Shown here one piece after another: positions 45,422 to 59,185 of a DNA stretch of 64,000 nucleotides (its first letter is position 1; every line of letters begins with the position of its first letter). The DNA comes from a virus: the IMG/VR virus record IMGVR_UViG_3300048904_000261, one strand, 5' to 3'. A program made the position numbers and the translations under genes. Under the pieces are notes generated by a model, which saw only the letters and a list, made by a program, of their open reading frames with translations, ran no database searches and was not told the DNA's origin.

Positions 45422-45706
45422 ATGACCATCGAGGCAATCGACGCAAACATAAAGTGGCTCCAGGATCGCCTCTACATGGCGCGCCGAATCCTCATGGCCG
45501 ATGGCGTCGAGCATCCCGTATTCGTCCTGCTGACAAAAACGCCGGAGGAACGCGCCAAGATCGAAAATCTTTTCCTCAACTACTACCGGTCCATGTACGG
45601 CGACATCCAATTTGTGAAGTCCATCCGGCCAGGCTCAAATTGCGCGGGCATCACCCACCTCGAATTGCCCGAACTTTGCGCCTCCATCGCTCTCATCGAC
45701 ATCTGA
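45422..45706 (+). CDS. Hypothetical protein
   Basis: 94-aa ORF. Last gene of the 38.4-45.7 kb operon. Confidence 0.5.
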   Translation: MTIEAIDANIKWLQDRLYMARRILMADGVEHPVFVLLTKTPEERAKIENLFLNYYRSMYGDIQFVKSIRPGSNCAGITHLELPELCASIALIDI

Positions 45707-45714
45707 GTAAATCG

Positions 45715-46284
45715 TCATGCCGGCGGCTGACTTTTGAATGACTCGGTGATCCTGCGCACCCGCTTCCCAACCGGCATCCCGTCCCGGTCGATCTCCCCTG
45801 CCTCCAGCTTCCGCACATACTCCCGTTCCCCAGGCAATGGCTTTCCAGACCCGCCACCTGCCGCAGCCACCTGCGCCTTTTGCCTCTCCCGCCATCGCGC
45901 CTGCGCTTCCTTGTTCTGCTGTCGCCGTTTCTCAGGATCCCTCGTCGCCCGATACTTCGCCCCGTTCACCACCAGGTAATCAAATTGCCCGATCCGCACC
46001 AGCCTCCGCCCGTCCGATTCCTTGCTCCGCGATTCTCCATCCGGCGAACACAGCATCTCGATCGCCCCTGCCACTTCCTTCTCAGGCTCCCCCAATATGA
46101 ACGCCAGCAGCTTCGGGTTCAGTTCCACCTCCATCCGCTCTCCTCCATCCCCCCGCGGCACCATGTTCGCGATCACATAACCCATAACCGCAAAGACCAC
46201 CGCCCCCTTCCCGATCATCGATCCTGTGTACATGCTCGCGTGATGCTTCCCAAACCCGACCAACGCCGGTAATGGTGATGTCAT
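45715..46284 (-). CDS. Winged-helix-like DNA-binding protein (replisome-organizer N-terminal-like / regulator candidate)
   Basis: ORF 45715..46293 (TTG). ATG at 46284. LNPKLLAFILGEPEKEVAGAIEMLCSPD...RLVRIGQFDYLVVNGAKYRATRDPEKRRQQNKEAQARWRER. The only minus-strand gene in the plus arm. Confidence 0.45.
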   Translation of the reverse strand: MTSPLPALVGFGKHHASMYTGSMIGKGAVVFAVMGYVIANMVPRGDGGERMEVELNPKLLAFILGEPEKEVAGAIEMLCSPDGESRSKESDGRRLVRIGQFDYLVVNGAKYRATRDPEKRRQQNKEAQARWRERQKAQVAAAGGGSGKPLPGEREYVRKLEAGEIDRDGMPVGKRVRRITESFKSQPPA

Positions 46285-46295
46285 TCTTCCCAACC

Positions 46296-46325
46296 CCTAT
46301 ACCAGAACCTTAAAACCGTAAGCAA
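46296..46325 (-). promoter_or_regulatory. Possible promoter of the reverse gene 45715..46284
   Basis: Minus strand TTGCTT (46325-46320), an 18-nt spacer and TATAGG (46301-46296). Confidence 0.25.
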
Positions 46326-47220
46326 GCAATAATCCGATGTAAGCACGTAATCGGCATATCAGCCGCAATCCGCCCAAGCAGAAGCAGAAGCAGAGGGGGT
46401 ACAGGGGGAGACTATCTCTCTATCCCAAAATCACCCCAAAATCGTAACTTCTCCCCAACCGCATTTTCAAGAGAGTAGAGAAGAGGGGCTTGTCAAGGAT
46501 CCCGGCGCGCGCCCGCGACCCCGGAACCCCCCCTGGGTCGAAGCCGAAATCGGCCTGGAATAGGGCTTTGGAACGTCAATTCATTCTGTAAACCCTTGCA
46601 ATCCAGCCTTGTGTGGCTTTGTCATGCCGCGGCATCCCGTCAAACCAACGGTTTCAGGCAAAAAGCCCAGTAAAATCAATGCCATGTAGCCGGTGACATG
46701 GTGAAGGAACACCGCACTCCGCCAGACCAAGCGCTGGAATACGGCATTCGTGGCAAGCGAAAACTTGCTAGTCTCTTCCCCATACAAGACTGAAAACAAC
46801 GTGGGCGTTGTAAAGTTCCAATGCCGTGGGATAACGAACCTTGCCAAAGGGATACTGAAGCAGTCAAGCCAGTCACTTCTCCCCGATAGCTGACGTTGCA
46901 AGTAAAGTTTCGAAAAGTAGCAGCAAAACACCTAGAAAGGCCAACGACACAAGCGCAATGGGCATTGTCCGAAAGGTTGCGTGATTGAGCAAAGCCGAAA
47001 GTATGGGTGAACAGGGAGTAGGGGAAAATTGCACTTTGAAACCTGGCAATACGAAGTTCCGTATACATCTTAAACTGTTACTTGCCACGCGGCATGTCAG
47101 ACAGACGGGTAAACTCACGAAGGGTACCGCTGAAAAAAACACCTAGCAAACAAGCGAACGACGGCAGGGAAAAATCATAGTAGGCCATTGAATTGGCTGA
47201 ATCCAATCTGCCGTCTGTTC

Positions 47221-47341
47221 GTTCCAATCCAATCTGAGCGCGCAAGTTCTCAGTGTGGATTGGAACTAACAAGTTCCCGATTCTGTTACACAATAAGCCA
47301 GAGTCGAAACAATCGGTACAAACCAGAAAGTACAAACAGTT
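47221..47341 (+). promoter_or_regulatory. Early leader unit 1
   Basis: Interrupted 18-bp stem 47221-47238 / 47249-47266 (GTTCCAATCCA..TGGATTGGAAC). Motif copy 1. CCAGAAAG at 47323-47330. ACAGTTATGA at 47336-47345. Confidence 0.5.
47280..47294. repeat. Junction-motif copy 1
   Basis: ATTCTGTTACACAAT followed by A (no ATG). Lies in the leader of the 47342 gene. Confidence 0.85.
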
Positions 47342-47914
47342 ATGATCAAAGAGTTAATTCAAGCGGCCGGCGCAAGTCGGAATGGCAAGTCCAAGGTTGC
47401 ATCCCTCGTGAATGCGAGCCCAGCAGTGAACGCGCGGCGCGCTCAGCCTGCATCGGTTGCGGCGCCGAAAGTCGAAGAGCCCAGTGACGCGGATATTGAC
47501 AATGGTTCGGAAGATTCGTTCGGTGACGAAGAGCACACTGCGTTGAAAGCGCGGTTCATCGATGCTTTGACCGCGCATTGCAAGGCGACGGCGCCGTTGA
47601 GTGAAGTAGTCGCCGAAATGATCGGGCAGGACATTGAAAGGGACGAAGCAATCGATTGGGGGATTGAGTCGGGATTGAGTGAAGGCTATGTCCGCTCGAC
47701 AGTCAGCAGCTTGTATATCGCGCTCACTGGCAAGCGCCAAGTCAAAGCGGGCGGCGGCCGCAAGGCGAACAAGGGCGCAAGGGCTTGCGCGATTCGGGCT
47801 CTGAAGGAATGCGAGACCGTTTCCGATGCGAAGGCATTGCTTCTCGCGGCGCGCCGGCTGATCGAAAAGTGGGAGAAGGCCGGCTCGACTGAGAAGGAAT
47901 TGGCCAAAGGATAA
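47342..47914 (+). CDS. Hypothetical early protein
   Basis: 190-aa ORF preceded by the conserved leader ACAGTTATGA. Confidence 0.6.
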   Translation: MIKELIQAAGASRNGKSKVASLVNASPAVNARRAQPASVAAPKVEEPSDADIDNGSEDSFGDEEHTALKARFIDALTAHCKATAPLSEVVAEMIGQDIERDEAIDWGIESGLSEGYVRSTVSSLYIALTGKRQVKAGGGRKANKGARACAIRALKECETVSDAKALLLAARRLIEKWEKAGSTEKELAKG

Positions 47915-47930
47915 TCCCTGGTTCCGGCTG

Positions 47931-47945
47931 ATTCTGTTACAGAAT
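47931..47945. repeat. Junction-motif copy 2 (perfect palindrome)
   Basis: ATTCTGTTACAGAAT plus G. 16 nt after the stop of the 47342 gene. Confidence 0.9.
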
Positions 47946-48043
47946 GGTGCGCTCTGCCCCGGATGTTCCACGTGGAACGTCTGCTGGGCAGAGCGCGGCA
48001 TTCACCCAAGGTGAAACCGTCGCAAGTCAAATAAACCAAGCCC

Positions 48044-48058
48044 ATTGTGTAACACAAT
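48044..48058. repeat. Junction-motif copy 3 (perfect palindrome)
   Basis: ATTGTGTAACACAAT plus G. Its ATG opens a 9-codon ORF ending in an ATGA overlap with the 48083 start. Confidence 0.9.
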
Positions 48059-48082
48059 GGCAATTCCGAAAGAACCACAGTT

Positions 48083-48457
48083 ATGAAGAACAACACCAAC
48101 ACCAACGGCACGGACAACACCAACGGCATCACGGCGGCGCTGAGCGCGGATGGCAAGTGCCTCGTGGTCTCGCTGCCCCTCATCCTGGACCAGGGCAAGA
48201 AGACCAAGAACGGCCGGAACTACGTGGCGGCGTCGAGCGGCGACTTCCCCAAGAACTGGGTCACGCTGGTCGTGGATGGGGAAGAGATCGGGTTCAACGC
48301 CATCGCGTTGGTCAAAGACCCGACGCATCCCGACAATCAGCCCAAGGTCGAGCCGGTCAAGCCCGCGATGCCCAAATTCTTCCAGAAGAAGGCCAGCTCG
48401 GGCAAGGTGCAGGGCAATGGCACGGTCAATCGCCTGAAGCCGGCCAGTGTCCAGTAA
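48083..48457 (+). CDS. Hypothetical early protein
   Basis: 124-aa ORF (MKNNTNTNGTDNTNGITAALSADGK...). Conserved leader. Its start overlaps the stop of a 9-codon upstream ORF. Confidence 0.6.
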   Translation: MKNNTNTNGTDNTNGITAALSADGKCLVVSLPLILDQGKKTKNGRNYVAASSGDFPKNWVTLVVDGEEIGFNAIALVKDPTHPDNQPKVEPVKPAMPKFFQKKASSGKVQGNGTVNRLKPASVQ

Positions 48458-48576
48458 TCGGCGGCATTGTGTGACAGAATGATCTGAGTCATGCGGTCTG
48501 CCCGGGACAGTGCACCGGGCAGCACGCAGCACTCACGCTGCAGATCAACAACCAAACCGAAAGCGAGAAAACAGTT
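48458..48576 (+). promoter_or_regulatory. Early leader unit 3
   Basis: Motif copy 4. Stem CTGCCCGG / CCGGGCAG at 48498-48505 / 48515-48522, extendable to 48492-48528. CCGAAAG at 48557-48563. ACAGTTATGA at 48571-48580. Confidence 0.55.
48466..48480. repeat. Junction-motif copy 4
   Basis: ATTGTGTGACAGAAT plus G. 9 nt after the stop of the 48083 gene. Confidence 0.9.
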
Positions 48577-48777
48577 ATGAGGAGAGTCACTGAAACCACG
48601 TGGACCTGGAGGGTGAATACACCCAACGGGATAGTCCTGATACCGGATGTCCCGGTGTCTGTCGCAATCAGACGGGCCGGGATGTTCGGGCCGGAGTCAG
48701 TCACGCCGGCGACCGAGGAAGAACACCGGAGCGCCGTCCATTCTGTCACACAATGCCAGGAAGGAGCGGGGCGATGA
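48577..48777 (+). CDS. Hypothetical early small protein
   Basis: 66-aa ORF with the conserved leader. Confidence 0.5.
   Translation: MRRVTETTWTWRVNTPNGIVLIPDVPVSVAIRRAGMFGPESVTPATEEEHRSAVHSVTQCQEGAGR
48740..48754. repeat. Junction-motif copy 5
   Basis: ATTCTGTCACACAAT plus G. Its ATG is the start of 48753..49052. Confidence 0.9.
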
Positions 48778-49052
48778 TCACCTACAAATACGACGGCGAA
48801 CCGCTCGAATGCCTGGCCAGAACGGTCGAGTTCCTGGTGATGAGCACCGATTCATGGGACGTGAACTTCGCCGTGGTCAAGGCGCTGTCTGAAACCCGGC
48901 CGTTCATCGACCAGTTCCCGGACTGGGAAGTGGACCGGCTGTTCGCGGCGGAGCTGAAGAAGAGCATCGGGTTCCGCAGTCAACGGCTCATGGCTATCCG
49001 CACCGTGCTGGGCAACCGCGTGTTCAAGGATAGCTGGTCATCCATTCTGTAA
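48753..49052 (+). CDS. Hypothetical protein
   Basis: Internal ATG of ORF 48600..49052, coinciding with junction motif 48740-48754. 99 aa. Stop TAA lies inside the next motif. Confidence 0.55.
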   Translation: MPGRSGAMITYKYDGEPLECLARTVEFLVMSTDSWDVNFAVVKALSETRPFIDQFPDWEVDRLFAAELKKSIGFRSQRLMAIRTVLGNRVFKDSWSSIL

Positions 49053-49058
49053 CACAAT
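49044..49058. repeat. Junction-motif copy 6
   Basis: ATTCTGTAACACAAT plus G. Contains the upstream stop TAA (49050-49052) and the start at 49057. Confidence 0.9.
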
Positions 49059-49485
49059 GAACACCATCACCTACACCGACGACGAAGAAGCCCGGTTCGG
49101 CCTGATCTCTGGACCATTCTGGCAAGACTGCTGCCACCATGAACCGGGCTCATACGTGGCATCGTTCGAAATCTGCAAGCCCAGCCCGATGGTCAAAGGC
49201 GGGTACAAGCAGGAGTTTTACGATCTCTACGTGTTTGAGAACCGCGGGCAGGAAATCTGCATCCGGTACGGGGCGGAGTGCTCGGAGTATATCTCGCCCG
49301 GTCACCTGGGCCAGTTCCTCACCAGGTTCACGGTGCATGAGCCATATCAGACGGCAGCCAGCATCCTGCTGCACTTCGGCATGGTTGAGTGGCGCAAGAA
49401 GGCAGCCGAAATCCTGGGCGAATTGTTCCCGCCAGCCGTGCCCCTGAACCCGGCTGATTGTGCGACACAATCGGCCGGCATTTGA
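49057..49485 (+). CDS. Hypothetical protein
   Basis: 142-aa ORF. Its start is the motif ATG (49044-49058 plus G). Confidence 0.6.
   Translation: MNTITYTDDEEARFGLISGPFWQDCCHHEPGSYVASFEICKPSPMVKGGYKQEFYDLYVFENRGQEICIRYGAECSEYISPGHLGQFLTRFTVHEPYQTAASILLHFGMVEWRKKAAEILGELFPPAVPLNPADCATQSAGI
49457..49471. repeat. Junction-motif copy 7
   Basis: ATTGTGCGACACAAT followed by C. Lies at the 3-prime end of the 49057 gene, ahead of the fourth leader. Confidence 0.8.
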
Positions 49486-49617
49486 TCCAGGACGAGCCAG
49501 ACCACCATCTTACCCCGGCATGGGGTATCAAAGCCACGCTCAGCCAAACGTCGCGAGCTGAGCGGGGCTTAATGCGGAGCGACACCAAACAGTCCGACAC
49601 CGAAAGACACCACAGTT
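49486..49617 (+). promoter_or_regulatory. Early leader unit 4
   Basis: Preceded by motif copy 7. Stems ACCCC/GGGGT (49512-49526) and CGCTCAGC/GCTGAGCG (49537-49564). CCGAAAG at 49600-49606. ACAGTTATGA at 49612-49621. Confidence 0.55.
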
Positions 49618-49917
49618 ATGAAGAACTCCACCTATCAAGATCGCGTTGACCGGATCATCGCGAAAGACCAGCTCACCGTCACGAACATGAAGGCGCTTTA
49701 CGCCGTCACCGGGGAGCGTTACCGCAACGCCGAGACTCCGGCCGATGAAGAGCGGGCAACCATCATCGCCGACAACATCAACTCCTGGCTGATCAAGGTC
49801 GCGCTGCGCCGGCACCGCAAGGAAGTGGCCGCGGCGACGGGCCCCCTCAACAATACCCTGGCTGCGCTCACCATCGGCAGGATCAAGGCGCGCCGGTTCA
49901 ACGGCAGCAAGGGATAA
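49618..49917 (+). CDS. Hypothetical early protein
   Basis: 99-aa ORF with the conserved leader. Confidence 0.6.
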   Translation: MKNSTYQDRVDRIIAKDQLTVTNMKALYAVTGERYRNAETPADEERATIIADNINSWLIKVALRRHRKEVAAATGPLNNTLAALTIGRIKARRFNGSKG

Positions 49918-49925
49918 CCTCAGCG

Positions 49926-49940
49926 ATTCTGTCACACAAT
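49926..49940. repeat. Junction-motif copy 8
   Basis: ATTCTGTCACACAAT plus G. Its ATG is the start of the unlisted 59-codon ORF. Confidence 0.9.
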
Positions 49941-50118
49941 GAACCCCGCTGAAGAGAAATACAAAGCGGCCCGGCAAGCGCACCTTGACTGTGTGCGCCG
50001 TCTCAACGTGGCCGATGGACAGAAGGCATCGGCCCAACTGCTGGCCAAGCTGCAACACGAAGTTGACGAGGCGTGGAAGGAACGCTGCCGCTGCTTCAAC
50101 GCTTACATGGAGAGCTGA
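49939..50118 (+). CDS. Hypothetical small helical protein (below ORF-track cutoff)
   Basis: 59 codons from the motif ATG (49926-49940 plus G): MNPAEEKYKAARQAHLDCVRRLNVADGQKASAQLLAKLQHEVDEAWKERCRCFNAYMES. Its stop abuts the next start at 50119. Confidence 0.5.
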   Translation: MNPAEEKYKAARQAHLDCVRRLNVADGQKASAQLLAKLQHEVDEAWKERCRCFNAYMES

Positions 50119-50448
50119 ATGAACCTGAGAATCGTCGAGGACGGGGAAGGTCCAACCAAAACCTTCCTCGTCATCGACCCAAGTGAAGGCGTCCCATTAG
50201 TTCTGGATGCCTACGAAACCGAGGCTGAAGCGCGGAGCTTCATCCAATTCATCGGGCAGAGCGACATCGCCATCCCTGTGCCCGCTGTTACCAAGAACCT
50301 GATCGAAACCCAAGGCGAAACCTGTGCGGTGTGCGGAGCCCCGCTCTACCGTGAAACCCCGGGCCAGTGCGCCCCGTGCAAGCAATACTTCCCCGCTTGC
50401 CCCGATCCTAACAACAACGGGGAGGAACCAGACAGCGAGTGGATATGA
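50119..50448 (+). CDS. Hypothetical protein with C-terminal Cys cluster
   Basis: 109-aa ORF. CAVCGAPLYRETPGQCAPCKQYFPAC. Confidence 0.55.
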   Translation: MNLRIVEDGEGPTKTFLVIDPSEGVPLVLDAYETEAEARSFIQFIGQSDIAIPVPAVTKNLIETQGETCAVCGAPLYRETPGQCAPCKQYFPACPDPNNNGEEPDSEWI

Positions 50449-50723
50449 AACCAAGGACCAGAACCTACGAGGCAATCGGTGATGCCGACCGGTACGTCCG
50501 GCGCGTCATCTGCACCGAAACCTACCGTGATAGCCAGCATTGGTGGGTGGTCATCATCCCCGAGGGATACGGCTCCGACCCGCAGCCGATTGTCTTCGCA
50601 AAGAAAACTGAAAGCGGGTGGAGCGTCGAACAAGAGGAAGGCTACGGACATTTCCGTCCGGAGTACGCCTTCGCCATCGCCCGACTGCTCACCGGCAACA
50701 CTGCTTATTCTGAGACACAATGA
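50445..50723 (+). CDS. Hypothetical protein
   Basis: ATG 50445 overlaps the upstream stop (ATGA). 92 aa. The ORF track lists a GTG at 50439. Confidence 0.55.
   Translation: MKPRTRTYEAIGDADRYVRRVICTETYRDSQHWWVVIIPEGYGSDPQPIVFAKKTESGWSVEQEEGYGHFRPEYAFAIARLLTGNTAYSETQ
50707..50721. repeat. Junction-motif copy 9
   Basis: ATTCTGAGACACAAT plus G. Its ATG is the start at 50720. Confidence 0.9.
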
Positions 50724-50983
50724 GCAAAACCAACAGGACAGATAGGACTGGAGAAACCGAGCATCAGAACTATCACCAATCGACGGTGAAGGTCATCCAC
50801 TACTACCGGCGCGAGTGCTACGGCACTCAGTTGGAGATTGTCGTCGATGAAGGCGACCGCAAGGTGCTGGCCCAACTTACAGGCCGGACCAAAACCATCA
50901 ACGGGACCATCCGGGAATTGCTGCGCGACCTGAGCGGGGGACGCATCCAGTTCCAGGAAGTGCTCGCACCCAAACAACCCTGA
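50720..50983 (+). CDS. Hypothetical protein
   Basis: 87-aa ORF. Its start is the motif ATG (50707-50721 plus G). Confidence 0.55.
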   Translation: MSKTNRTDRTGETEHQNYHQSTVKVIHYYRRECYGTQLEIVVDEGDRKVLAQLTGRTKTINGTIRELLRDLSGGRIQFQEVLAPKQP

Positions 50984-50997
50984 TTCTGTGACACAAT
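50983..50997. repeat. Junction-motif copy 10
   Basis: ATTCTGTGACACAAT plus G. Its first base is the last base of the upstream TGA. Its ATG is the start at 50996. Confidence 0.9.
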
Positions 50998-51145
50998 GAA
51001 ACTCGTAGAGATCATCACTAACATCCTCACGTTCATCGCCGGCGCCGCCTTAATGGTGCTGGTGTGGGCGGTACAACTGTTCCTGTTCGGAGCAACCATC
51101 ATGCTGGCCCTGTGGGTATTCTTCAAAATCATCAGCTTATTCTGA
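50996..51145 (+). CDS. Small two-helix membrane protein (below ORF-track cutoff)
   Basis: 49 codons from the motif ATG: MKLVEIITNILTFIAGAALMVLVWAVQLFLFGATIMLALWVFFKIISLF. Stop TGA lies inside the next motif. Confidence 0.5.
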   Translation: MKLVEIITNILTFIAGAALMVLVWAVQLFLFGATIMLALWVFFKIISLF

Positions 51146-51153
51146 GACACAAT
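51139..51153. repeat. Junction-motif copy 11
   Basis: ATTCTGAGACACAAT plus G. Contains the upstream TGA (51143-51145) and the start at 51152. Confidence 0.9.
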
Positions 51154-51856
51154 GAAAACCGTAGCATCAATACTCAAGGCCAGTGAGCTGGCCTACACAC
51201 TCAGCGACGATTGGAACTGGCAACGGCGTGGCGAACGCCCGCTTGATCTCCACATCCAGGCATACCAAACCTACGGTGATGGGACGGTCCAACACAGCGG
51301 CGCCTGGGCTCCGCAATTCCACGACATCATCGACGTGTGCCTCTCGTTCACCGCTGCCATCCTCGCCGACCCGTTCGCCGAAGAGTGGAAGCTGTTGACC
51401 CGATCACTGTGCCGGACGCAGCCGTGCTTCCTCCGCTTCGCCCTGTCGGTGAAGTATAAGGAGGGAGTCAGTCAGTATTACAACATCACCGACATGAAGT
51501 TGGGTAAGTCGGAGAAGCTACGCCATGACAAGCGCTGGGAAGAAGTCTGGTCCGCGTGCAATGGGACGCCGGCCAGTGCGCTGACGATTCTCTATCACCG
51601 GAAGGAATCAATGGACTGGTTCGAGCGCGTGGATCTGGCGATGCGGCTCACGGCATTGGCGCAGGCCGATGGCTGGGGCTACCAACCCATCGAGGAAGTG
51701 TTCGCTCCGCTCGCCGATCTGGAACGGCTTGGCGATTGGCGCCAGGCATTCGAGGGGTACCGCCGTGCCGTCGAAGCAGCCGAGTCACTGGACCTGGCGC
51801 GCCGGCTCAGCGCCAACGCGCTGGAGAACACCAACAGAAGCAAGGCCGCGGCCTGA
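51152..51856 (+). CDS. Hypothetical protein
   Basis: 234-aa ORF. Its start is the motif ATG (51139-51153 plus G). Confidence 0.6.
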   Translation: MKTVASILKASELAYTLSDDWNWQRRGERPLDLHIQAYQTYGDGTVQHSGAWAPQFHDIIDVCLSFTAAILADPFAEEWKLLTRSLCRTQPCFLRFALSVKYKEGVSQYYNITDMKLGKSEKLRHDKRWEEVWSACNGTPASALTILYHRKESMDWFERVDLAMRLTALAQADGWGYQPIEEVFAPLADLERLGDWRQAFEGYRRAVEAAESLDLARRLSANALENTNRSKAAA

Positions 51857-51870
51857 TTGTGAGACACAAT
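51856..51870. repeat. Junction-motif copy 12
   Basis: ATTGTGAGACACAAT plus G. Abuts the upstream TGA. Start at 51869. Confidence 0.9.
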
Positions 51871-52210
51871 GAGTAACATCACACCCGGAGAATGGATCGC
51901 ACTCAACGGCGGTCCCTACATCGTAGCCCAAGGTGAGGACGGCGGCTATCGAGTCGTCGCCATCACCGCCAACACGTTCAACGAAGTCACCTTCGCCGCT
52001 GGCGTAGGCACCATCGAAGACAAGGCCAATGCCAAAGTGCTGGCCGCATCCCCGGCTCTGTTCACCGCCTGCAAAGACGCGCTCGAATGGATATGGGGCG
52101 AGATCGGTAACGACCAGGAGAGCCTTGCCAATCACGGCAAAGAGGGACACGACTCCGACACTTGCATCGTTTGCACACTGCGCGATGCACTCAAGAAAGC
52201 GACACCATGA
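51869..52210 (+). CDS. Hypothetical protein (paralog family with 54816..55103)
   Basis: 113-aa ORF. Its start is a motif ATG. TPGEW...ANAKVLAASPALFTACKDAL parallels TPKPW...DDAMLISAAPELLAACKAVV. Confidence 0.6.
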   Translation: MSNITPGEWIALNGGPYIVAQGEDGGYRVVAITANTFNEVTFAAGVGTIEDKANAKVLAASPALFTACKDALEWIWGEIGNDQESLANHGKEGHDSDTCIVCTLRDALKKATP

Positions 52211-52407
52211 AACTCGAAGAAGCAAAAGAGGAAGCCAAGTCCGCAGCTATCAAATCCAAAATGCCCATCGCCCTCGTCAACGAGGGACTTCACGCCGACG
52301 AATTCGCCGAGCGTGAAGAGGACGGCACTAGCTACGGTTACTGCCCCGAGCTGGCCGTGCCGATCCTGTATCGGTACGGCACCGTCGTTGAAATCATCAA
52401 CCCATGA
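52207..52407 (+). CDS. Hypothetical small protein
   Basis: Internal ATG of ORF 52162..52407 with an ATGA overlap. 66 aa. Confidence 0.5.
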   Translation: MKLEEAKEEAKSAAIKSKMPIALVNEGLHADEFAEREEDGTSYGYCPELAVPILYRYGTVVEIINP

Positions 52408-52598
52408 AGCGCTACCTGCTGTTCGCCGGGATGACCTACTATCCGCTGCCAGGGTGGGAAGGTTTCATCGGCAGCTTCGACACCGCCGATGAGGCACAGG
52501 CCGAAGGTGAGAGGAGACAAAACCAATCCGCGTTCACCGACTGGTGGCAGGTCGTTGACTCAACCACCGGACAGATCGTTGTCCAATGCGAATCGTGA
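52404..52598 (+). CDS. Hypothetical small protein
   Basis: 64-aa ORF with an ATGA overlap. Confidence 0.55.
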   Translation: MKRYLLFAGMTYYPLPGWEGFIGSFDTADEAQAEGERRQNQSAFTDWWQVVDSTTGQIVVQCES

Positions 52599-52795
52599 AG
52601 ACATCAACCATCATCACCGTCGAGTTTCTCCCGATGTTCAAACGCATCTGGATTACTCGCCGGCTGAAGAACGGGATCAACTTGTCCCGTCAATACCCGC
52701 TGCACAGCAGAAGCCTGACCCGCATCTTCAAGGTGGCAGGGCACTGGCGTTGGGTGCAACCGCACGTATCAACACCGAGATTGGAGAGACCATGA
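52586..52795 (+). CDS. Hypothetical basic small protein (weak)
   Basis: 69-aa ORF. Its stop overlaps the next ATG (ATGA). Confidence 0.35.
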   Translation: MRIVKTSTIITVEFLPMFKRIWITRRLKNGINLSRQYPLHSRSLTRIFKVAGHWRWVQPHVSTPRLERP

Positions 52796-52965
52796 GACTA
52801 CACCCACAACTCAAACCCATCATCGATGCCATCACGAAGGACAACCCTTCGCTGCGCCTCGTAACGAAACCCGACCCGACTCATCCCTTGCTGGAATCAG
52901 GCGGGAACGGAAAGCCAATAGCTATGCTGAAGGGAGTTTCAAAATTTCGGAAAGGCGGAACATGA
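52792..52965 (+). CDS. Hypothetical small protein
   Basis: Internal ATG of ORF 52489..52965, preceded by GGAGAG. 57 aa ending KFRKGGT. Confidence 0.5.
   Translation: MRLHPQLKPIIDAITKDNPSLRLVTKPDPTHPLLESGGNGKPIAMLKGVSKFRKGGT
52940..52958 (+). repeat. 19-bp direct repeat, left copy
   Basis: CAAAATTTCGGAAAGGCGG. Identical copy at 53158-53176. Confidence 0.9.
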
Positions 52966-53186
52966 AAATGTTGGTTATGAGAAACTCTATAGGAGGGATG
53001 ATCTGGCAAGCCTATAGAGTAGAAAATGCGGAAGAGGAAACAATACTAATTAGGAACGCTAACCAAAATGGCTTCCTAGTTGAAACTCAACCAGAAGGCT
53101 ACACCACGGAAACAACACCAGGTTGGAGAGACACTCCAGAATGGAAAGTATGCCTAGCAAAATTTCGGAAAGGCGGGAAGTCTTAA
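52962..53186 (+). CDS. Hypothetical small protein in an AT-rich insert
   Basis: 74-aa ORF. Clearly lower GC than its surroundings. Flanked by a 19-bp direct repeat. Ends KFRKGGKS. Confidence 0.5.
   Translation: MKMLVMRNSIGGMIWQAYRVENAEEETILIRNANQNGFLVETQPEGYTTETTPGWRDTPEWKVCLAKFRKGGKS
53158..53176 (+). repeat. 19-bp direct repeat, right copy
   Basis: CAAAATTTCGGAAAGGCGG. The two copies bracket the AT-rich ORF 52962..53186. Confidence 0.9.
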
Positions 53187-53187
53187 T

Positions 53188-53325
53188 ATGAACAGGTATG
53201 TAACATTAAGACAGGTAGTAATAGCCTATACGGTCTTAATGACCTTCATACAGTGCCAAGATTGCCAAACTGCTGACCCGACTGCGCAACGGCTGCAACT
53301 GGTCAGTCCCGTGGTAATTCTGTAA
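53188..53325 (+). CDS. Possible small protein (below ORF-track cutoff)
   Basis: 45 codons: MNRYVTLRQVVIAYTVLMTFIQCQDCQTADPTAQRLQLVSPVVIL. Stop TAA lies inside junction motif 53317-53331. Confidence 0.35.
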   Translation: MNRYVTLRQVVIAYTVLMTFIQCQDCQTADPTAQRLQLVSPVVIL

Positions 53326-53331
53326 CACAAT
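53317..53331. repeat. Junction-motif copy 13
   Basis: ATTCTGTAACACAAT plus G. Start at 53330. Confidence 0.9.
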
Positions 53332-53659
53332 GAGAGTCCGAGTTCACTTCAACTTACATCGGCGTGACTTCAGCGTCATCGATCCTTCGACCGGCCGAGT
53401 CATCCGCAACACCGACACCATCACCCTTCGAGACGTGGAGTTCCGCGTCTCGGAGAAGGGACGGCAGCGTGTCATCCGTACCAGGTGCCGGATGGTCCAT
53501 GCCTATGCGATCGGCACCATCACCGAGCACCAACCACTGAAGACAGCCTGCACCTACAACCCATATCGCGCTGGACATTTCCACCGTCGAGGCTATCCCG
53601 ACCAGCCAGTCTGGACGGCCGACGTGGTTACGTTCAGCGGCGGTTACTGCTGGATATGA
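53330..53659 (+). CDS. Hypothetical protein
   Basis: 109-aa ORF. Its start is a motif ATG. Confidence 0.6.
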   Translation: MRVRVHFNLHRRDFSVIDPSTGRVIRNTDTITLRDVEFRVSEKGRQRVIRTRCRMVHAYAIGTITEHQPLKTACTYNPYRAGHFHRRGYPDQPVWTADVVTFSGGYCWI

Positions 53660-53660
53660 A

Positions 53661-53987
53661 ATGAAACTGGAAATGAAATCCAAATGCGACAACTGCGACT
53701 GGGTCGGCGAGCCGGAGGACAAGGAGATCCCCGGCCTGCATGAGCGGGTTGATCCCGGTGGCACCATGCCATCGGGTGAATGCCCTGAATGCGGATGCCT
53801 GTGCTACCCGGACGTGGACACACGATACCTGCTGACACCAACCGACAAAGTTTGGTGCCCGAAGTGTGAGCGGAAAGTATCCATGCTCGCCACTCAGGAA
53901 CTGGACGGCCCTGCATTCTACATCTGCTTTTCGTGCCGTCACGTTGCGCAGATCGGAGTGGGGCCAGTCAATACTGTAACAGAATGA
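53661..53987 (+). CDS. Multi-CxxC zinc-ribbon protein
   Basis: 108 aa. CDNC, CPECGC, CPKC and CFSC pairs. Confidence 0.55.
   Translation: MKLEMKSKCDNCDWVGEPEDKEIPGLHERVDPGGTMPSGECPECGCLCYPDVDTRYLLTPTDKVWCPKCERKVSMLATQELDGPAFYICFSCRHVAQIGVGPVNTVTE
53971..53985. repeat. Junction-motif copy 14 (variant)
   Basis: ATACTGTAACAGAAT plus G. Start at 53984. Confidence 0.8.
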
Positions 53988-54604
53988 GCCTACCATCCAC
54001 GTTCAGACCGAAGACATCGGCTGACTTCATCGGCCCGGCTGGCAAGTGGGCGGCGCACCTCGAGAAGCTGGTGCGCCTGGCCCTGCCTACCGGGGATCCA
54101 CTCCGCATCATGCTGCTCGGTGCCTCCGGCGTCGGCAAGAGCCAGCTCGCCGAACACCTGGTCCGCACGACCGGCGCCGGCAAGTTCAGCATCAGCCGGT
54201 ATAACGGCAAACGCTTCCGCATCGAGGACGTTGCCGACATCAGCAGCCGGTTCCAACTGCGCGATATGTTCGGCGGGTTCCGCGTTCTCCAACTGGAGGA
54301 AGTCGATCAGGTACCGCCGGGCACACAGATCGCCCTGCTCACCATGCTGGATGATCTGCCACCGTTCACGGCCTGCATTGCCACGAGTAATTGCAGCGTC
54401 AAACAATTCGAGGTCCGGTTTCAACGGCGGTTCACCGTCTGCGAGATCGATCCTCCCACCGAGAAGGATATTCTGGCCATGCTCCAGTTGCGCTGGCCAG
54501 TGATCCCGAAGAAACGCGCCGTCGAGATCGCAACTTTCTGTTGCGGCTCGGTCGGCCAGGCATTAACCGATGCGGACAATGCTTACGCGGAGTTCGCAGC
54601 ATGA
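53984..54604 (+). CDS. AAA+ ATPase, clamp-loader (RFC/DnaX small subunit)-like
   Basis: Internal ATG of ORF 53933..54604 at motif 53971-53985. Walker A LLGASGVGKS, Walker B VLQLEEVD and sensor-1-like CIATSN. Confidence 0.55.
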   Translation: MSLPSTFRPKTSADFIGPAGKWAAHLEKLVRLALPTGDPLRIMLLGASGVGKSQLAEHLVRTTGAGKFSISRYNGKRFRIEDVADISSRFQLRDMFGGFRVLQLEEVDQVPPGTQIALLTMLDDLPPFTACIATSNCSVKQFEVRFQRRFTVCEIDPPTEKDILAMLQLRWPVIPKKRAVEIATFCCGSVGQALTDADNAYAEFAA

Positions 54605-54819
54605 AGATCATCCGAAGCCGGGTCATCCGGTTCAACGTGGTCCACGACAACGGGCATCACGACACCATTGACTTCATCCCTTACGACAACGTGCCGGGAT
54701 GGACGCACCGCATTGCCTATAACGGCAGGCTCACGGCGCACTGGGTCTGCGACAAATTCAAACCGAGCGTCGAGGTAGCACAATTCTTCCTCGACAAAAT
54801 TCTGGCCACAAAACCATGA
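54601..54819 (+). CDS. Hypothetical small protein
   Basis: Internal ATG of ORF 54391..54819 with an ATGA overlap. 72 aa. Confidence 0.5.
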   Translation: MKIIRSRVIRFNVVHDNGHHDTIDFIPYDNVPGWTHRIAYNGRLTAHWVCDKFKPSVEVAQFFLDKILATKP

Positions 54820-55103
54820 GCAAACACACACCAAAACCGTGGAGCTACGCTTGCGATAGCGGCCACTCAACGCCGTGTCTTCGCGGGGTTCAACACTCCA
54901 AGAAGGCAGTGGTCTATTCCGAAGACCGGACGATTGCCAGTCACATTGCAAACTGGGATGACGCCATGCTGATCTCGGCCGCGCCTGAGTTGTTGGCCGC
55001 GTGCAAAGCCGTGGTCGGCTTGATCGAAGCGATGCACGAAGTTCCACCAACGCGCGCAAATATGCTCCGCGCTGCCATCCGCAAGTCCGAAGGGCACCAA
55101 TGA
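54816..55103 (+). CDS. Hypothetical protein (paralog family with 51869..52210)
   Basis: 95-aa ORF with an ATGA overlap. Confidence 0.55.
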   Translation: MSKHTPKPWSYACDSGHSTPCLRGVQHSKKAVVYSEDRTIASHIANWDDAMLISAAPELLAACKAVVGLIEAMHEVPPTRANMLRAAIRKSEGHQ

Positions 55104-55189
55104 ACTACATCATCGCCATCCTGCTGGCTGCCATCGGCACCACCATCTGGCTATACCTATACCGCCGGTTCATCGAGCCGCGCGGTTGA
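55100..55189 (+). CDS. Possible 29-aa single-pass membrane peptide
   Basis: ATG 55100 overlaps the upstream stop. MNYIIAILLAAIGTTIWLYLYRRFIEPRG. The last base of its TGA stop (55187-55189) is the first base of junction motif 55189-55203. Confidence 0.4.
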   Translation: MNYIIAILLAAIGTTIWLYLYRRFIEPRG

Positions 55190-55203
55190 TTCTGTGACAC
55201 AAT
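55189..55203. repeat. Junction-motif copy 15
   Basis: ATTCTGTGACACAAT followed by C. Abuts the upstream TGA. 56 nt before the 55259 start. Confidence 0.85.
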
Positions 55204-55258
55204 CACCCACGCTTAACCACGTTCAACCATACACAACCACAGGTACCCATAGATACCC

Positions 55259-56155
55259 ATGAGTAACAACGGACAAGCACAGACACAGGCGCTCCTGGTC
55301 TCCCTCTCCTTCACCCTCTGCCGTCAAAGCAGGGAGTCCAAGAAGGAAGCGAAGCGGAGCGAGGACGCCAACAATGCGCACCGCGGGGTGTGCAAGACAT
55401 CGGTCTTCTACTTCAAGGAGATCGTCGGCAAGCAAACCAATGACGCGCTCTTCGACCTGCGCCAATACACCAACGCCTGGAGGAGCGAGCACAACAGGCT
55501 GACCAGGCCGTGGGATGGCAACAACGTCCGGCTCCTGCCGGCGGCACTCGTCGCCCAGTACATCGACGCCAAGTCCAAGTTCGAGGAAGGGTTCCCCGCC
55601 GTCCTGCAGGGGTTCCTCGAAGTTTACCAGGACTGGTTCGTCACGGCCCCTCACCGGATGGGCGAGCTGTATGACGTCGCCGACTTCCCGTCCTTCGACG
55701 AGGCGCGCACCGCCATCGGCTTCGATGTCCACATGCTGCCGCTCCCTGAAGCGGAGCAATGGAAGAAAATCTCCATCATCAGCCCCGACCTGGCGCAGAC
55801 GATGGAGGCAAGCACCAACGCACGCATCGCCAAGGCAGTCGAGGCGGCGCGCAAACAGACATGGGTTGACCTGATCGAACCGGTCCAGCACATCGTCACC
55901 ACGCTGAGCAAGGACAAGGGCAAGATCTTCGACAGCCTGATCGGCAACCTCGTCAACATCCTGGACCTGGCGCCGGCATTCAACCTGAGCGGGGACCAGC
56001 AGATGAGTCAGTTCATCACCGAAGCGAAGGCGAGCCTGGCCGTCATCAACCCGGACGATTTGCGGAACGACCCGGAGATCCGCAAGACCACATGCAAGAA
56101 GGCCGAGGCCATCCTCGCCAAGTTCGGTCAACTCGGTAACAGGAAGTTCGCATGA
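55259..56155 (+). CDS. Hypothetical protein (resembles DUF3150-type phage/plasmid proteins, weak)
   Basis: 298-aa ORF with a CA-rich 56-nt leader that lacks a Shine-Dalgarno site. Confidence 0.5.
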   Translation: MSNNGQAQTQALLVSLSFTLCRQSRESKKEAKRSEDANNAHRGVCKTSVFYFKEIVGKQTNDALFDLRQYTNAWRSEHNRLTRPWDGNNVRLLPAALVAQYIDAKSKFEEGFPAVLQGFLEVYQDWFVTAPHRMGELYDVADFPSFDEARTAIGFDVHMLPLPEAEQWKKISIISPDLAQTMEASTNARIAKAVEAARKQTWVDLIEPVQHIVTTLSKDKGKIFDSLIGNLVNILDLAPAFNLSGDQQMSQFITEAKASLAVINPDDLRNDPEIRKTTCKKAEAILAKFGQLGNRKFA

Positions 56156-56445
56156 GAAAAGAAGAGAGAGCCGACGCACTGCGCGAGAAGTTTCGAGAGA
56201 AGCTTCTGGCCCACGTTCAACAAGACGACGCCCACCGCCTATTGGCCATTGCCACCATCGAAGCGCAACGGAAGGAAGCGGACTCCAGAGAGAAACTGGT
56301 GGCCTCCGCCAGAGACGTCGCTGAACTATGCCGGTTGGTTCACGGCGATCGGTATTTGTGCGACACCAAATACCAACTGCCTGATGGTCGCATCGCGGAG
56401 ATCACCGACCGGGGAATCTTCGTCCTCAACGTCAACAAAATCTAA
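56152..56445 (+). CDS. Hypothetical protein
   Basis: 97-aa ORF with an ATGA overlap. Confidence 0.55.
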   Translation: MRKEERADALREKFREKLLAHVQQDDAHRLLAIATIEAQRKEADSREKLVASARDVAELCRLVHGDRYLCDTKYQLPDGRIAEITDRGIFVLNVNKI

Positions 56446-56449
56446 TGAC

Positions 56450-56704
56450 ATGGACACCAAACCAAGCACCGACGCTGAGCGTTGCCAACTGGCGCGCGAG
56501 GTGTTCAATACATGCTTCAATAACACGGAGGCTTTCAGAGAGAATCATTTCGGATCGGACCTTTCCTATCTGATTGGCGCCATAGTGGATGACGTCAATT
56601 CCTTTGTGGATTGGACCGAGTGCCAAACCATTCTTGCGAAGTTCCGCGAATGGTTCCCACCGGAACATAAGGTGTGGCTCTACATCGTCGAAGGGGAATA
56701 CTGA
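56450..56704 (+). CDS. Hypothetical protein
   Basis: Internal ATG of ORF 56249..56704. 84 aa. Confidence 0.5.
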   Translation: MDTKPSTDAERCQLAREVFNTCFNNTEAFRENHFGSDLSYLIGAIVDDVNSFVDWTECQTILAKFREWFPPEHKVWLYIVEGEY

Positions 56705-56905
56705 ATGGACACCTGGTTAGTCATTCACCATCAGCACGGCGGCGCCTTTGCCGCTGCGCTGGTGGAATCCGATCACGAACCCAAGGATGATGAAGTCATC
56801 CGCGCCCTGGACCTGGAGCACGCTCCCGGCCAGGGCGAATCCATCACCGTCCAACTGGTGGACAAGGCCGACGTGCCGGTCCTGCCAGCAACGCAACCGA
56901 AGTAG
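56705..56905 (+). CDS. Hypothetical acidic small protein
   Basis: 66-aa ORF starting immediately after the upstream stop. Confidence 0.5.
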   Translation: MDTWLVIHHQHGGAFAAALVESDHEPKDDEVIRALDLEHAPGQGESITVQLVDKADVPVLPATQPK

Positions 56906-56908
56906 GGC

Positions 56909-56945
56909 TTGACAGTGTATGGCGGTTAGCATACAAACGCCATAC
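56909..56945 (+). promoter_or_regulatory. Promoter with overlapping inverted-repeat operator ahead of the RHH gene
   Basis: TTGACA (56909-56914), a 17-nt spacer and TACAAA (56932-56937). The inverted repeat GTATGGCG (56917-56924) / CGCCATAC (56938-56945) flanks the -10 and ends at the ATG. Confidence 0.45.
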
Positions 56946-57092
56946 ATGAAAACGCCAAGCACAATCCGCTTCTCTTACGGTGCCAAGAAAATCCTTGCCC
57001 GGTTGACGCGCAAGTTAGGCGTCAGCCAGTCGGCAATCATCGAGATGGCTATTCGCCAGTTCGACGAAACAAGTAGAGCAAAATCCAAATGA
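56946..57092 (+). CDS. Ribbon-helix-helix (Arc/MetJ/CopG-type) regulator (below ORF-track cutoff)
   Basis: 48 codons: MKTPSTIRFSYGAKKILARLTRKLGVSQSAIIEMAIRQFDETSRAKSK. Preceded by TTGACA-17-TACAAA, which overlaps an 8-bp inverted repeat. Its stop overlaps the next ATG. Confidence 0.6.
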   Translation: MKTPSTIRFSYGAKKILARLTRKLGVSQSAIIEMAIRQFDETSRAKSK

Positions 57093-57559
57093 GTCATGTC
57101 GTCACATCGGAAATCAAGATCAAGGATCTTGAAGCGCTCCGTAAAGCAGTCGAGTCATTCGGCTGTGTCATGGTGCGGAAACCCAAATACAACTGGTTCG
57201 GTCGCAGCGTCGGGGATTACCCGCTGCCCAAAGGAATGACCGAAGCACAACTCGGGAAGTGCGAGTGGGCAATCCAAGTGCCCGGTGCCTACTACGAAGT
57301 CGGAGTCGTCCGCCTGCCGGACGGCAGCTACACGCTGGCCTTCGACTTCTATGGATCGTCCACTCGGGATTACGTCCCCGGCGCGTCCATGCAGCACGAC
57401 GGCCAGAAGTTGAAGACTAAGTTCGGGGATAAGCTGTGTCTGCTGGCGCAGCAATACAGCAAGCAGGTCACCCTCGCCGCTGCAAAGAAGGCCGGCTACT
57501 CCGTGATGCAGAAGGTCACGCCGGAAGGAAAGATAAAACTCCAGCTCATCCAGTTATGA
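57089..57559 (+). CDS. DUF1257 (Ycf35-like)-type protein
   Basis: 156 aa. The N-terminal pattern VVTSEIKIKDLEALRKAVESFG and the adjacency to a DUF2997-like gene resemble the DUF1257/DUF2997 pairing known from bacterial genomes. Confidence 0.45.
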   Translation: MSHVVTSEIKIKDLEALRKAVESFGCVMVRKPKYNWFGRSVGDYPLPKGMTEAQLGKCEWAIQVPGAYYEVGVVRLPDGSYTLAFDFYGSSTRDYVPGASMQHDGQKLKTKFGDKLCLLAQQYSKQVTLAAAKKAGYSVMQKVTPEGKIKLQLIQL

Positions 57560-57807
57560 GCAGCGAGGCAGCGAAGAAAGCCTGGGCCACGCGCCGGGCC
57601 AGGACGAAGAAGCGCACGCCGGTCCAGCGTCTTACCACGCTGGCCAATGAGCTGGTCCGCTGGCGCCGGAAGGAAACGATCGCCCGAAACAAACTCAAGA
57701 AGCTGAACTTCCAGTTGGAACAGCTCGTCGAGGAAGTTCTCATTCCTCCGCTGGTACCAGACGGCACGTTCAGCACCATGTTCAAAGGAAGGAAGATCAC
57801 CAAATGA
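57556..57807 (+). CDS. Hypothetical basic helical protein
   Basis: Internal ATG of ORF 57436..57807 with an ATGA overlap (CAGTTATGA). 83 aa. Confidence 0.5.
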   Translation: MSSEAAKKAWATRRARTKKRTPVQRLTTLANELVRWRRKETIARNKLKKLNFQLEQLVEEVLIPPLVPDGTFSTMFKGRKITK

Positions 57808-59016: not shown

Positions 59017-59020
59017 ACAA
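59011..59020 (+). repeat. Degenerate junction-like decamer CTGTGAACAA (left)
   Basis: Contains the stop TGA of 58762..59016. Repeated at 59186-59195. Confidence 0.6.
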
Positions 59021-59185
59021 TTTGATTTGTCCAGTAGCCCACGTGGCTGGCGCGATCCATAACTGGCGCGCATCAGTCTGGAATGGGTGCAACAGCGTAG
59101 CGGTGCGGGATCGCACGCCTGGTTTTGGCCGGCCATAGCTGTCCTTTCGCCGGGCCTCCGCTGTGCTGGGCAAATCATTCTTAAT

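Follow-up and report, generated by a model that had tools for sequence, protein, structure and literature searches.

Palindromic motifs, a covarying RNA hairpin and leaders predicted to be open at the gene junctions of an uncultivated phage

Arrays of short repeats at gene starts are known from several groups of phages, as start-associated sequences (SAS) and extended SAS (ESAS), Cluster O repeats, stoperators and promoter-early stem-loops (PeSLs), most of which still await a functional explanation. In Cluster K mycobacteriophages, SAS are found in the non-structural arm only, at genes of unrelated families and with a strong preference for ATG starts, and their function is unknown; the subset that carries extra inverted repeats is called ESAS (PMC3203893). 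Cluster O mycobacteriophages have tens of copies of a 17-bp dyad repeat, TGTTCGGNNNCCGAACA, with two 7-bp inverted half-sites, many of them in the short intergenic spaces of one transcription block; deletions between the copies distinguish related genomes, and the authors proposed that the repeats are sites of dimeric regulators (PMC4351075). The stoperators of Cluster A are many operator copies in short intergenic spaces, by which one repressor silences long operons through a block of elongation (PMC9283540), and the PeSLs of T4-type phages are intergenic cassettes of a stem-loop, a Shine-Dalgarno box and a start, which lie upstream of ORFans in a plastic region and bound insertions and deletions between close strains (PMC2839356). 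Here we analyze gene junctions of the phage in IMG/VR virus record IMGVR_UViG_3300048904_000261, using a stretch of 64 kb (the window, whose positions are given throughout) of its genome of ~77.6 kb. The layout is similar to these known, still-unexplained repeat systems and matches none of them in full: the junctions carry a palindromic motif, a hairpin family called R1 and an A/C-rich leader, and the long junctions appear to combine up to three separable elements, acting as DNA, as RNA and in translation.

The original prediction, made from the window alone, had described four units upstream of the + strand genes that start at 47342, 48083, 48577 and 49618. Exact-pattern scans of IMG/VR with the leader box and with the motif gave mostly single chance matches, with several copies only in the phage's own contig, and relatives therefore had to be reached via proteins, namely the product of the first gene of the block (gene A) and that of its divergent neighbor, together with scans of metagenomes and genomes. 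The loci obtained are designated by L numbers. When positions 46000-52000 were compared with 50,697 phage records, no DNA similarity was found.

The motif is a 19-bp palindrome, T-N-ATTSTGT-N-ACASAAT-N-A. As ATTSTGTNACASAAT, it occurs 16 times at 47280-59717, that is, within 12.5 kb, and once more at 5407, against an expectation of 0.5. All 16 copies in the array are at gene junctions, as in stoperator arrays; in 12 of them the final two bases, together with the G behind them, are the ATG at which the next gene starts, and the others lie 20-62 nt before a start or ahead of a hairpin unit. The array opens with ATTCTGTTACACAAT at 47280-47294 on the + strand, the strand of all the copies listed here, and continues with copies at the heads of unit 2 (47931-47945) and unit 3 (48466-48480), a second copy in unit 2 that is the perfect palindrome CCATTGTGTAACACAATGG (48044-48058), and ATTGTGCGACACAAT at 49457-49471, within the last codons of the open reading frame (ORF) at 49057-49485. 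The other 11 copies, most of them fused to the next ATG, begin at 48740, 49044, 49926, 50707, 50983, 51139, 51856, 53317, 53971, 55189 and 59703 (48740-59717 in all). Past 59717 no further copy was found, and none was present in the ~9 kb of the genome that follow the end of the window. The lone perfect copy, ATTGTGTAACACAAT at 5407-5421, is remote from the array, in the late region on the - strand, and apparently within the ORF at 4921-5697.

The motif was present at the gene junctions of every locus fetched via a gene A homologue, and the first copy was also found upstream of the first-gene start in all six relatives in which the region was read. One locus, that of the more distant relative L176, has the neighboring gene only, with no gene of the size of gene A, no 1-kb gap and no motif. 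In IMG/VR, several copies of the motif were found only in the phage's near-identical contig. When 74 instances from 11 loci were pooled, the consensus was T-N-ATTCTGT-N-ACACAAT-N-A, and the position matrix correlated with its own reverse complement at 0.96, the symmetry reaching the T at -2 and the A at +2. The bases at positions 4 and 12 were CC in 31, CG in 17, GC in 14 and GG in 8 instances, which are the counts predicted by independence. Since the half-sites vary independently, base pairing between them is not selected, and judging from the sequence the motif would most simply be read by a dimeric DNA-binding protein, not by RNA pairing. Formation of an RNA hairpin by the motif itself was rejected for the same lack of covariation at positions 4 and 12 and because the loop of 1 nt is impossible. 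LexA boxes have a characteristic consensus, and the spacing of the motif does not fit it.

Like SAS, the motif is a conserved short sequence at starts, with ATG preferred, and all 16 copies are confined to 47280-59717; unlike SAS, which are asymmetric with the Shine-Dalgarno core AGGAG, it is palindromic and has no GGAG or AGGA core. With the Cluster O repeats it shares 7-bp inverted half-sites (here ATTSTGT/ACASAAT) and the occurrence of indels between copies, but the spacer is 1 bp here and 3 bp there, and one third of the Cluster O copies are within coding regions and not tied to start codons, whereas every copy of the block is start-associated. The density of 16 copies in 12.5 kb recalls the stoperators, and by this analogy an elongation block of the stoperator type would be the most likely mechanism for the palindrome; the stoperators differ in that they are asymmetric sites of 13-14 bp, bound by a monomeric repressor and present in both genome arms, whereas the site here is symmetric.

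The motif also marks sites of gene gain and loss. The window was compared with contig L001, which is 95-99% identical to it. Two of the three larger indels consist of exactly one ORF and one motif copy, and lie between motif copies (L001 12604-12845 and 14032-14286). The third begins ~4 nt before the 51856 copy and removes it, and its right edge has no motif. One of the ORFs inserted in L001 opens with the same sequence as an ORF of the distant relative L181. The first two indels are flanked by the motif, much as cassettes bound the indels of the PeSL regions, and the stem-loops here are likewise near regulatory sequence and upstream of ORFans.

The second element is R1. The long junctions of the relatives consist of the motif, GAGUuUCGCGGnC, a variable helix, gCaCGCGGCACUCAC, an A/C-rich leader and the start. 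In an alignment of 16 copies, all fold into the same three-tier hairpin, with helices of 4, 5 and 6-13 bp and a symmetric 2x2 internal loop, and from this alignment a covariance model was built. The base of the helix is conserved as GAGUuUCGCGG ... CGCGGCACUC, so that the conserved ends are GAGUUUCGCGG and CGCGGCACUC, and the internal loop is also conserved, while the upper helix covaries freely. Pairing was found in 95.7% of 233 cells, with compensatory double changes in 11 of the 15 pairs, and none of 500 shuffles reached the observed values; as a control, the 3′ partner was slid by 1-3 columns and pairing dropped to 30-47%. One U·G wobble is present in 13 of the 16 copies, where the other strand would have a C·A mismatch. 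Because this wobble is kept on the + strand only, the structure belongs to the + strand RNA. In accordance with that, + strand matches to the model score ~35-45 bits above their - strand images. Copies that were not in the seed scored 59.6 and 42.4 bits (L181/L182) and 42.5 bits (L161).

R1 starts 0-9 nt past the motif, in the 5′ untranslated region (UTR) of particular genes. There are about two copies per relative and at most two per locus, and none in L176, L177 and L186. A copy precedes the orthologues of gene B (124 aa; 48083-48457, +), the second gene of the four, in all relatives examined, whatever lies upstream. Since R1 stays with gene B, it is a 5′-UTR element of the downstream gene and not a 3′ element of the upstream gene, which fits the view of the hairpin as part of a leader. 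The orthologues were identified by BLASTP with E values of 1e-19 to 1e-34 in five relatives, and short forms were recognized by reading. A second hairpin, H2 (GCGGC-ACUCAC-GCCGC, with the loop ACUCAC), overlaps the 3′ arm of R1; it can form in about half of the copies, and pairs in 59% of the cells. ESAS have their inverted repeats upstream of the SAS, whereas R1 is downstream of the motif and shows RNA covariation. Rfam gave no match at the gathering score in the whole window and none at E <= 5 in 46200-50000, and R1 is a candidate for a new RNA family.

In the window, only units 2 and 3 match the R1 model. Both matches are on the + strand: that of unit 2 is at 47942-48016 (45.5 bits, E 3.7e-9; 16.4 bits on the - strand) and that of unit 3 at 48486-48547 (59.1 bits, E 1e-12; 23.1 bits on the - strand). 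The tiers of the unit 3 copy are GAGU/ACUC (outer), GCGG/CGC (middle) and CUGCCCGG/CCGGGCAG (inner), and the optional second hairpin GCAGC-ACUCAC-GCUGC follows. The covariation that the original prediction asked to be looked for is thus present for these two hairpins, as structures of the + strand RNA.

A 14-bp palindrome, GTTCCACGTGGAAC at 47965-47978, forms the tip of the unit 2 hairpin, and relatives carry it too. In general form, GTTCCAC(G/A)TGGAAC, it was observed once per locus and mostly at the tip of one R1 hairpin: besides the window site (47965-47978) at L175 8090, L167 2431, L168 1669, L184 681, L164 8565-8588 and L179 ~1000. The window sequence TGTTCCACGTGGAACG (47964-47979) matches 15 of the 16 positions of the consensus of parS, the chromosomal ParB site, which is the 16-bp palindrome TGTTNCACGTGNAACA; the relatives keep the arms GTTCCA/TGGAAC, and the center varies (CACATG, CACGGG, TACGTG). 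In L161 (4855-5037, -) and L169 (2092-2376, -) a gene in reverse orientation splits the R1 hairpin right beside GTGGAACA, and its translation reads like an HNH endonuclease; in L184, a close relative of L161, the hairpin is intact. The palindrome at the tip may be a homing site.

The four units are real and conserved, yet composite and non-uniform. As RNA, on the + strand, the stems were predicted to fold with -31.3 kcal/mol (z -8.7) in unit 1 (47216-47271), -44.9 kcal/mol (z -8.8) in unit 2 (47943-48002), -28.6 kcal/mol (z -4.4) in unit 3 (48486-48534) and -31 kcal/mol (z -3.8) for the two hairpins of unit 4 (49511-49526 and 49531-49570; together 49511-49570). The gaps upstream of the genes are 168 nt (47915-48082), 119 nt (48458-48576) and 132 nt (49486-49617) in units 2 to 4, and ~1 kb (46294-47341) for the first gene. 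A U-tract follows none of the four stems; the combination of GC-rich hairpin and U-tract that defines an intrinsic terminator is therefore found in none of them. The unit 1 and unit 4 stems do not match the R1 model. The former is the terminal helix CAATCC/GGATTG of the ~1-kb noncoding region, and relatives have a homologous CAATCCC...GGGATTG helix. The unit 4 stems are lineage-specific, with no counterpart in relatives; in front of the unit 4 orthologues of L167 and L182 there is a true R1 hairpin. The strong stems without a U-tract, the long upstream regions and the shared start box of the original prediction are thus found as described, whereas the single layout for all four units is not; a motif copy heads the regions of units 2 and 3, but in unit 1 the copy at 47280 comes after the stem and in unit 4 it is inside the upstream ORF. 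The predicted conservation was also observed: the order of motif, hairpin, A/C-rich leader and (A/G)GTTATG(A) is kept in relatives whose first-gene protein is 45-67% identical.

The third element is the leader. The start box ACAGTTATGA has exactly four exact copies in the window, at 47336, 48077, 48571 and 49612, each of which holds the ATG of an ORF; with one mismatch there are six matches against 1.18 expected, a number reached in none of 100 shuffles. Taken by itself, CCGAAAG shows no enrichment in the window, with 18 matches where 14.4 are expected. Its placement 4-7 nt before three of the four ACAGTTATGA boxes is nevertheless specific, and of 2.9 million viral contigs that were scanned, the phage's own near-identical contig alone has several instances of CCGAAAG-N(4-8)-ACAGTTATGA. 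The initiation regions, all on the + strand, are CCAGAAAG-N6-ACAGTTATGA in unit 1 (47323-47345), CCGAAAG-N4-ACAGTTATGA in unit 2 (48066-48086), CCGAAAG-N7-ACAGTTATGA in unit 3 (48557-48580) and CCGAAAG-N5-ACAGTTATGA in unit 4 (49600-49621), with predicted unpaired probabilities of 0.65, 0.69, 0.66 and 0.62. For comparison, the value is 0.42 +/- 0.11 for random positions and 0.32-0.61 for other starts; with 0.62-0.69 the four start regions are predicted to be unusually open. As the original prediction had noticed, the leaders after the stems are A/C-rich and G-poor, with 38-50% A and 17-21% G against 25% and 28% in the block.

In the orthologous genes of relatives, GGA, GGAG or GAAAGGA lies 5-10 nt before (A/G)GTTATG(A), as in CGAAAGGAyAGTTATG and in the start regions cGAAAGGAcAGTAgaacaccATG and cgaaGGATAGTTATG. 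The CCGAAAG and CCAGAAAG of the window would therefore most simply be the Shine-Dalgarno-like box of the relatives in a degenerate form that has lost GGA, instead of the separate regulatory box for which CCGAAAG had been taken. Many bacterial 16S rRNAs have CUUUC at the extreme 3′ end, complementary to GAAAG, and the position of the GAAAG box 10-13 nt before the ATG is the spacing expected for the register of the 16S 3′ end. This register would account for the variable distance and frame of the box seen in the original prediction. Throughout the genome, classical Shine-Dalgarno sequences are few at gene starts, and A at +4 (ATGA) is general. Translational coupling by an upstream mini-ORF that ends in the TGA of ATGA was rejected, since A at +4 is general in the genome and the candidate upstream ORFs are not conserved. 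A fifth gene with a long leader, absent from the list in the original prediction, starts with the ATG at 55259; at 55189-55261 a motif copy is followed by a leader of 55 nt (55204-55258; 42% C and 9% G), and there is no hairpin.

Taken together, the four units would be intercistronic expression cassettes in one long co-oriented block of small accessory genes. In the reading that we prefer, tentatively and as one that may well be wrong, an operator-like palindrome gates the block and forms the cassette boundary, R1 is a hairpin for processing or stability, and the leader is open and Shine-Dalgarno-like. A dimeric regulator encoded by the phage would bind the palindrome and gate transcription through the block, as at an operator array or at a roadblock similar to the stoperators. 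Being the only sequence common to unrelated neighboring genes, the palindrome would also become the breakpoint at which cassettes are gained and lost. R1 would be a target of an RNase III-type enzyme, or a hairpin left at the 5′ end as a protection, and in both cases it would uncouple the downstream cistron from its neighbor. The early region of T7 reportedly (Dunn and Studier, 1983) has RNase III sites that are related irregular hairpins of ~20 bp with an internal loop and without a U-tract, between the early genes of a polycistronic transcript. R1 resembles them as an irregular hairpin with an internal loop between cistrons, also without a U-tract, and differs from them by its symmetric 2x2 loop, its conserved base sequence, its number of at most two copies per locus and its constant position in the 5′ UTR. 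The A/C-rich open leader, which has the start context AGTTATGA and, ~10-13 nt ahead of the ATG, the GAAAG(GA) box, would load ribosomes de novo, serving genes that are too distant from the previous stop codon for translational coupling. What the data show are the elements themselves, their conservation, the + strand RNA structure of R1, the symmetry of a motif with independent half-sites and the cassette indels located at it; the binding protein, the role of R1 and the time at which the block is expressed are inferences.

Several observations weigh against this reading. The + strand favors C at both variable positions of the motif, which indicates some strand-specific or RNA-level constraint, possibly selection against a start-codon hairpin. 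A repressor would hardly seem to need a site at every gene. None of the proteins is a strong candidate for binding to the motif: the product of gene A lacks a recognizable DNA-binding fold, and the winged-helix protein of the divergent gene described below is also encoded in L176, which lacks the motif. The thermodynamic preference of the hairpins for one strand is modest, in that 13 of 18 fold more stably as the + strand (G·U pairs: 33 against 24), and cleavage of R1 by RNase III would be a matter of analogy. The host 16S rRNA is presumed to have a 3′ tail ending in CCUCCUUUCU. Finally, L181/L182 have a canonical U-tract terminator between gene A and the motif-plus-R1 unit (in L181 a stem at 2840-2864, then the U-tract CCTTTTTCTTT), so that the genes downstream would require read-through or antitermination, or a promoter that escaped notice.

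A promoter is the core of another account, in which every unit has a promoter and leader of its own and forms a self-contained cassette: a phage factor together with the host RNA polymerase, or a phage polymerase that has escaped recognition, would act at the motif or at adjacent sequence, and R1 would be the 5′ hairpin of the primary transcript. The motif stands before nearly every gene and moves with the cassettes, R1 starts 0-9 nt past it and belongs to the downstream gene, and fresh transcripts would fit both the terminator directly before the motif-plus-R1 unit of L181/L182 and the GC-rich hairpins that abut the T-rich left half of the motif in L167, L161 and L179. A scan with the sigma-70-like -35/-10 consensus, however, found no site on the + strand at 45600-50200 and one on the - strand (1.6 expected), and no TANNNT-type hexamer is at a usable distance in the leaders; the PeSLs, by contrast, have a strong sigma-70 -35/-10 promoter and terminator stem-loops. 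A 19-bp palindrome with independent half-sites is also unlike any known promoter class. With the ATG inside the motif in 12 of the 16 window copies, a transcription start further downstream could not serve those genes, and CASAAT was rejected as a -10 box since the start would then fall inside ORFs, past the conserved outer helix of R1. N4-type hairpin promoters have a stem of 5-7 bp and a loop of 3 nt and are used by a giant virion RNA polymerase, whereas the stems here have 15-26 bp and the sole giant ORF (2053 aa) has no polymerase match. Among the larger phage proteins, this ORFan included, neither an RNA polymerase nor a sigma factor was found, although it is just conceivable that the ORFan is a novel polymerase. 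We consider the account unlikely, and of the promoter-leader cassettes of the original prediction we retain conserved functional intergenic expression elements without the promoter. Quite unlikely in our view is that the stems are attenuators or terminators, factor- or Rho-dependent, which step down the expression of the operon, with the G-poor leaders as rut-like sites for Rho loading. Strong hairpins do follow stop codons, and several relatives have hairpins that adjoin the T-rich left half of the motif. The leaders lack structure and are poor in G (that at 55204-55258 with its 42% C and 9% G is an example), and in roughly half of its copies R1 is overlapped at the 3′ arm by the alternative second hairpin, as in attenuators. 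But the clade has U-tract terminators, as in L181/L182, and the window stems, lacking the tract, are therefore unlikely to be simple terminators; moreover, R1 segregates with the downstream gene and not with the upstream gene, termination does not need conserved sequence in the helix base and internal loop, and a conserved, properly spaced Shine-Dalgarno-like box closes the leaders.

The indels raise the further question whether motif and hairpins are primarily DNA recombination sites of an integron-like or PeSL-like cassette system, operated by a tyrosine recombinase or by general recombination. Single-gene indels flanked by the motif between near-identical strains, the L001 insertion that begins like an ORF of the distant L181, the tyrosine recombinase of the same genome and the conserved base and variable interior of R1, as in attC sites, are all in its favor. 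The recombinase of this integrase-encoding phage is encoded beyond the window, ~17 kb away, and its score of 31.6 bits against the integron-integrase model TIGR02249 (cut-off 265) led us to reject an integron integrase. The attC sites of integrons have the cores RYYYAAC ... GTTRRRY at every cassette junction, whereas R1 ends in GAGUUUCGCGG/CGCGGCACUC and hairpins are at only two junctions per locus. In addition, the 7-1-7 motif is too short for the core site of a tyrosine recombinase, the indels are at plain motif copies, a locus has no more than two copies of R1, and on the right side of the third indel there is no motif. Recombination between short repeats needs no dedicated function, and we regard this explanation as very unlikely.

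A different possibility concerns the conserved noncoding region of ~1 kb at 46294-47341 (+ strand), which is flanked by the divergent gene (45715-46293, -) on one side and by gene A on the other and presumably holds regulatory or leader sequences. Each of the six frames is interrupted by stop codons of all three kinds, both in the window and in five relatives, and a recoded gene hidden in the gap was rejected for this reason in these six genomes. The G+C content is ~50%, against ~58%. The region is conserved across six relatives in position and in blocks (alignments A2 and A4), namely GAGTAGAG, CCATGTAG..TGnAG, GACGTTGCANGTAAAG, GACGTTGCAnGTAAAG and GGAAAATTGCAC, and has a hairpin CGACCCC-loop-GGGGTCGAAtCC with a T-loop-like sequence. 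The z-scores of the minimum free energy on the + strand are modest (-1.5 to -2.9), only a few helices are supported in the alignment at 43% identity, and Rfam, as stated for 46200-50000, has no match to it. The region may be a large structured leader or noncoding RNA, or a dense regulatory region, and like R1 it is a candidate for a new RNA family.

The first gene of the block, gene A (47342-47914, +), encodes an ORFan of 190 aa that is predicted to be all-helical by AlphaFold2 (mean confidence score, pLDDT, 70). It has 17 homologues with 38-95% identity, and in the relatives fetched it co-occurs with the motif and the 1-kb region. Fold searches against PDB and BFVD and a profile search against PDB sequences found no match. 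It is improbable, though worth stating, that the 1-kb region, R1 and the gene A product form a new phage system of control by RNA, with the palindrome array as its DNA counterpart. A structured leader RNA, or an RNA-protein complex, would then make RNA polymerase resistant to termination across the block, and such antitermination, if true, would explain the canonical terminators inside the block of some relatives. Hairpins after gene A, at 2826-2870 in L181 and 4563-4598 in L161, have the loops GGTTCAAATCC and GGTTCAATCCC, which are similar to a tRNA T-arm; the hairpin of L181 is the canonical terminator with its U-tract.

Whichever mechanism applies, the locus adds an independent example of start-site repeat arrays, from an uncultivated clade, in which the components are cleanly separable into a symmetric DNA site, a covarying RNA hairpin tied to one orthologous gene and a defined leader for ribosome landing, and in which near-identical strains show single-gene cassettes gained and lost exactly at the repeat. 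If the palindrome is a roadblock operator or R1 is a processing site, the regulation and the shuffling of the pools of small accessory genes in phages would have a simple explanation. Anti-defense genes tend to be located in such pools.

As for the remaining genes of the units, that of unit 3 (48577-48777, +; 66 aa) was missed by public gene callers, and it is taken as real because its W(T/S)WRV.TP core is conserved in relatives. The unit 4 gene (49618-49917, +; 99 aa) has orthologues in relatives. Pfam, PHROG and NCBIfam gave no convincing match for the unit proteins, and two marginal PHROG matches to families of unknown function (E 0.003-0.007) were disregarded. The divergent gene at 45715-46293 (-) is a candidate regulator, with a predicted winged helix and a long basic helix. 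Its protein falls outside all Pfam, PHROG and NCBIfam models. In Foldseek the AlphaFold2 model (pLDDT 82) matched, over ~85 columns, the DNA-binding domains of CooA, CRP and CprK, with a probability of up to 1.0 and E 9e-3. The family is uncharacterized and has 294 homologues, many of them on phage-like contigs of 25-67 kb. A further candidate, the first + strand gene, at 38447-38641, has a weak ribbon-helix-helix match.

Contigs of 77.6-77.7 kb with the same genes and differing end points, from at least 10 data sets, suggest that the genome is complete. The genes at 1.2-38.4 kb are on the - strand and include those of terminase, DnaB, a replication initiator and virion proteins; beyond 38.4 kb almost all genes are on the + strand, a DNA methylase and an AAA ATPase among them. 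The scan for tRNA and tmRNA genes found none. One relative is a contig binned with a Verrucomicrobiia metagenome-assembled genome, and the host clade of this uncultivated phage is possibly Verrucomicrobia.

The 2053-aa ORF lies outside the window, at ~71.4-77.6 kb of the genome (L177 16263-20387, -), next to a gene of glycosyltransferase family 29 (sialyltransferase-like), and has no match in Pfam, PHROG or PDB sequences. L176, the locus without the motif, has its own asymmetric 13-mer repeat, GTCAAGCGGAAAG, with eight sites at up to two mismatches against 0.67 expected (for example 5455-5467 and 16494-16506). A hybrid histidine kinase, an unusual cargo for a phage, is encoded at 6675-8285 (-) of the window; it combines HisKA, HATPase_c and receiver domains, two of which were matched at E 1e-30 and 8e-28.

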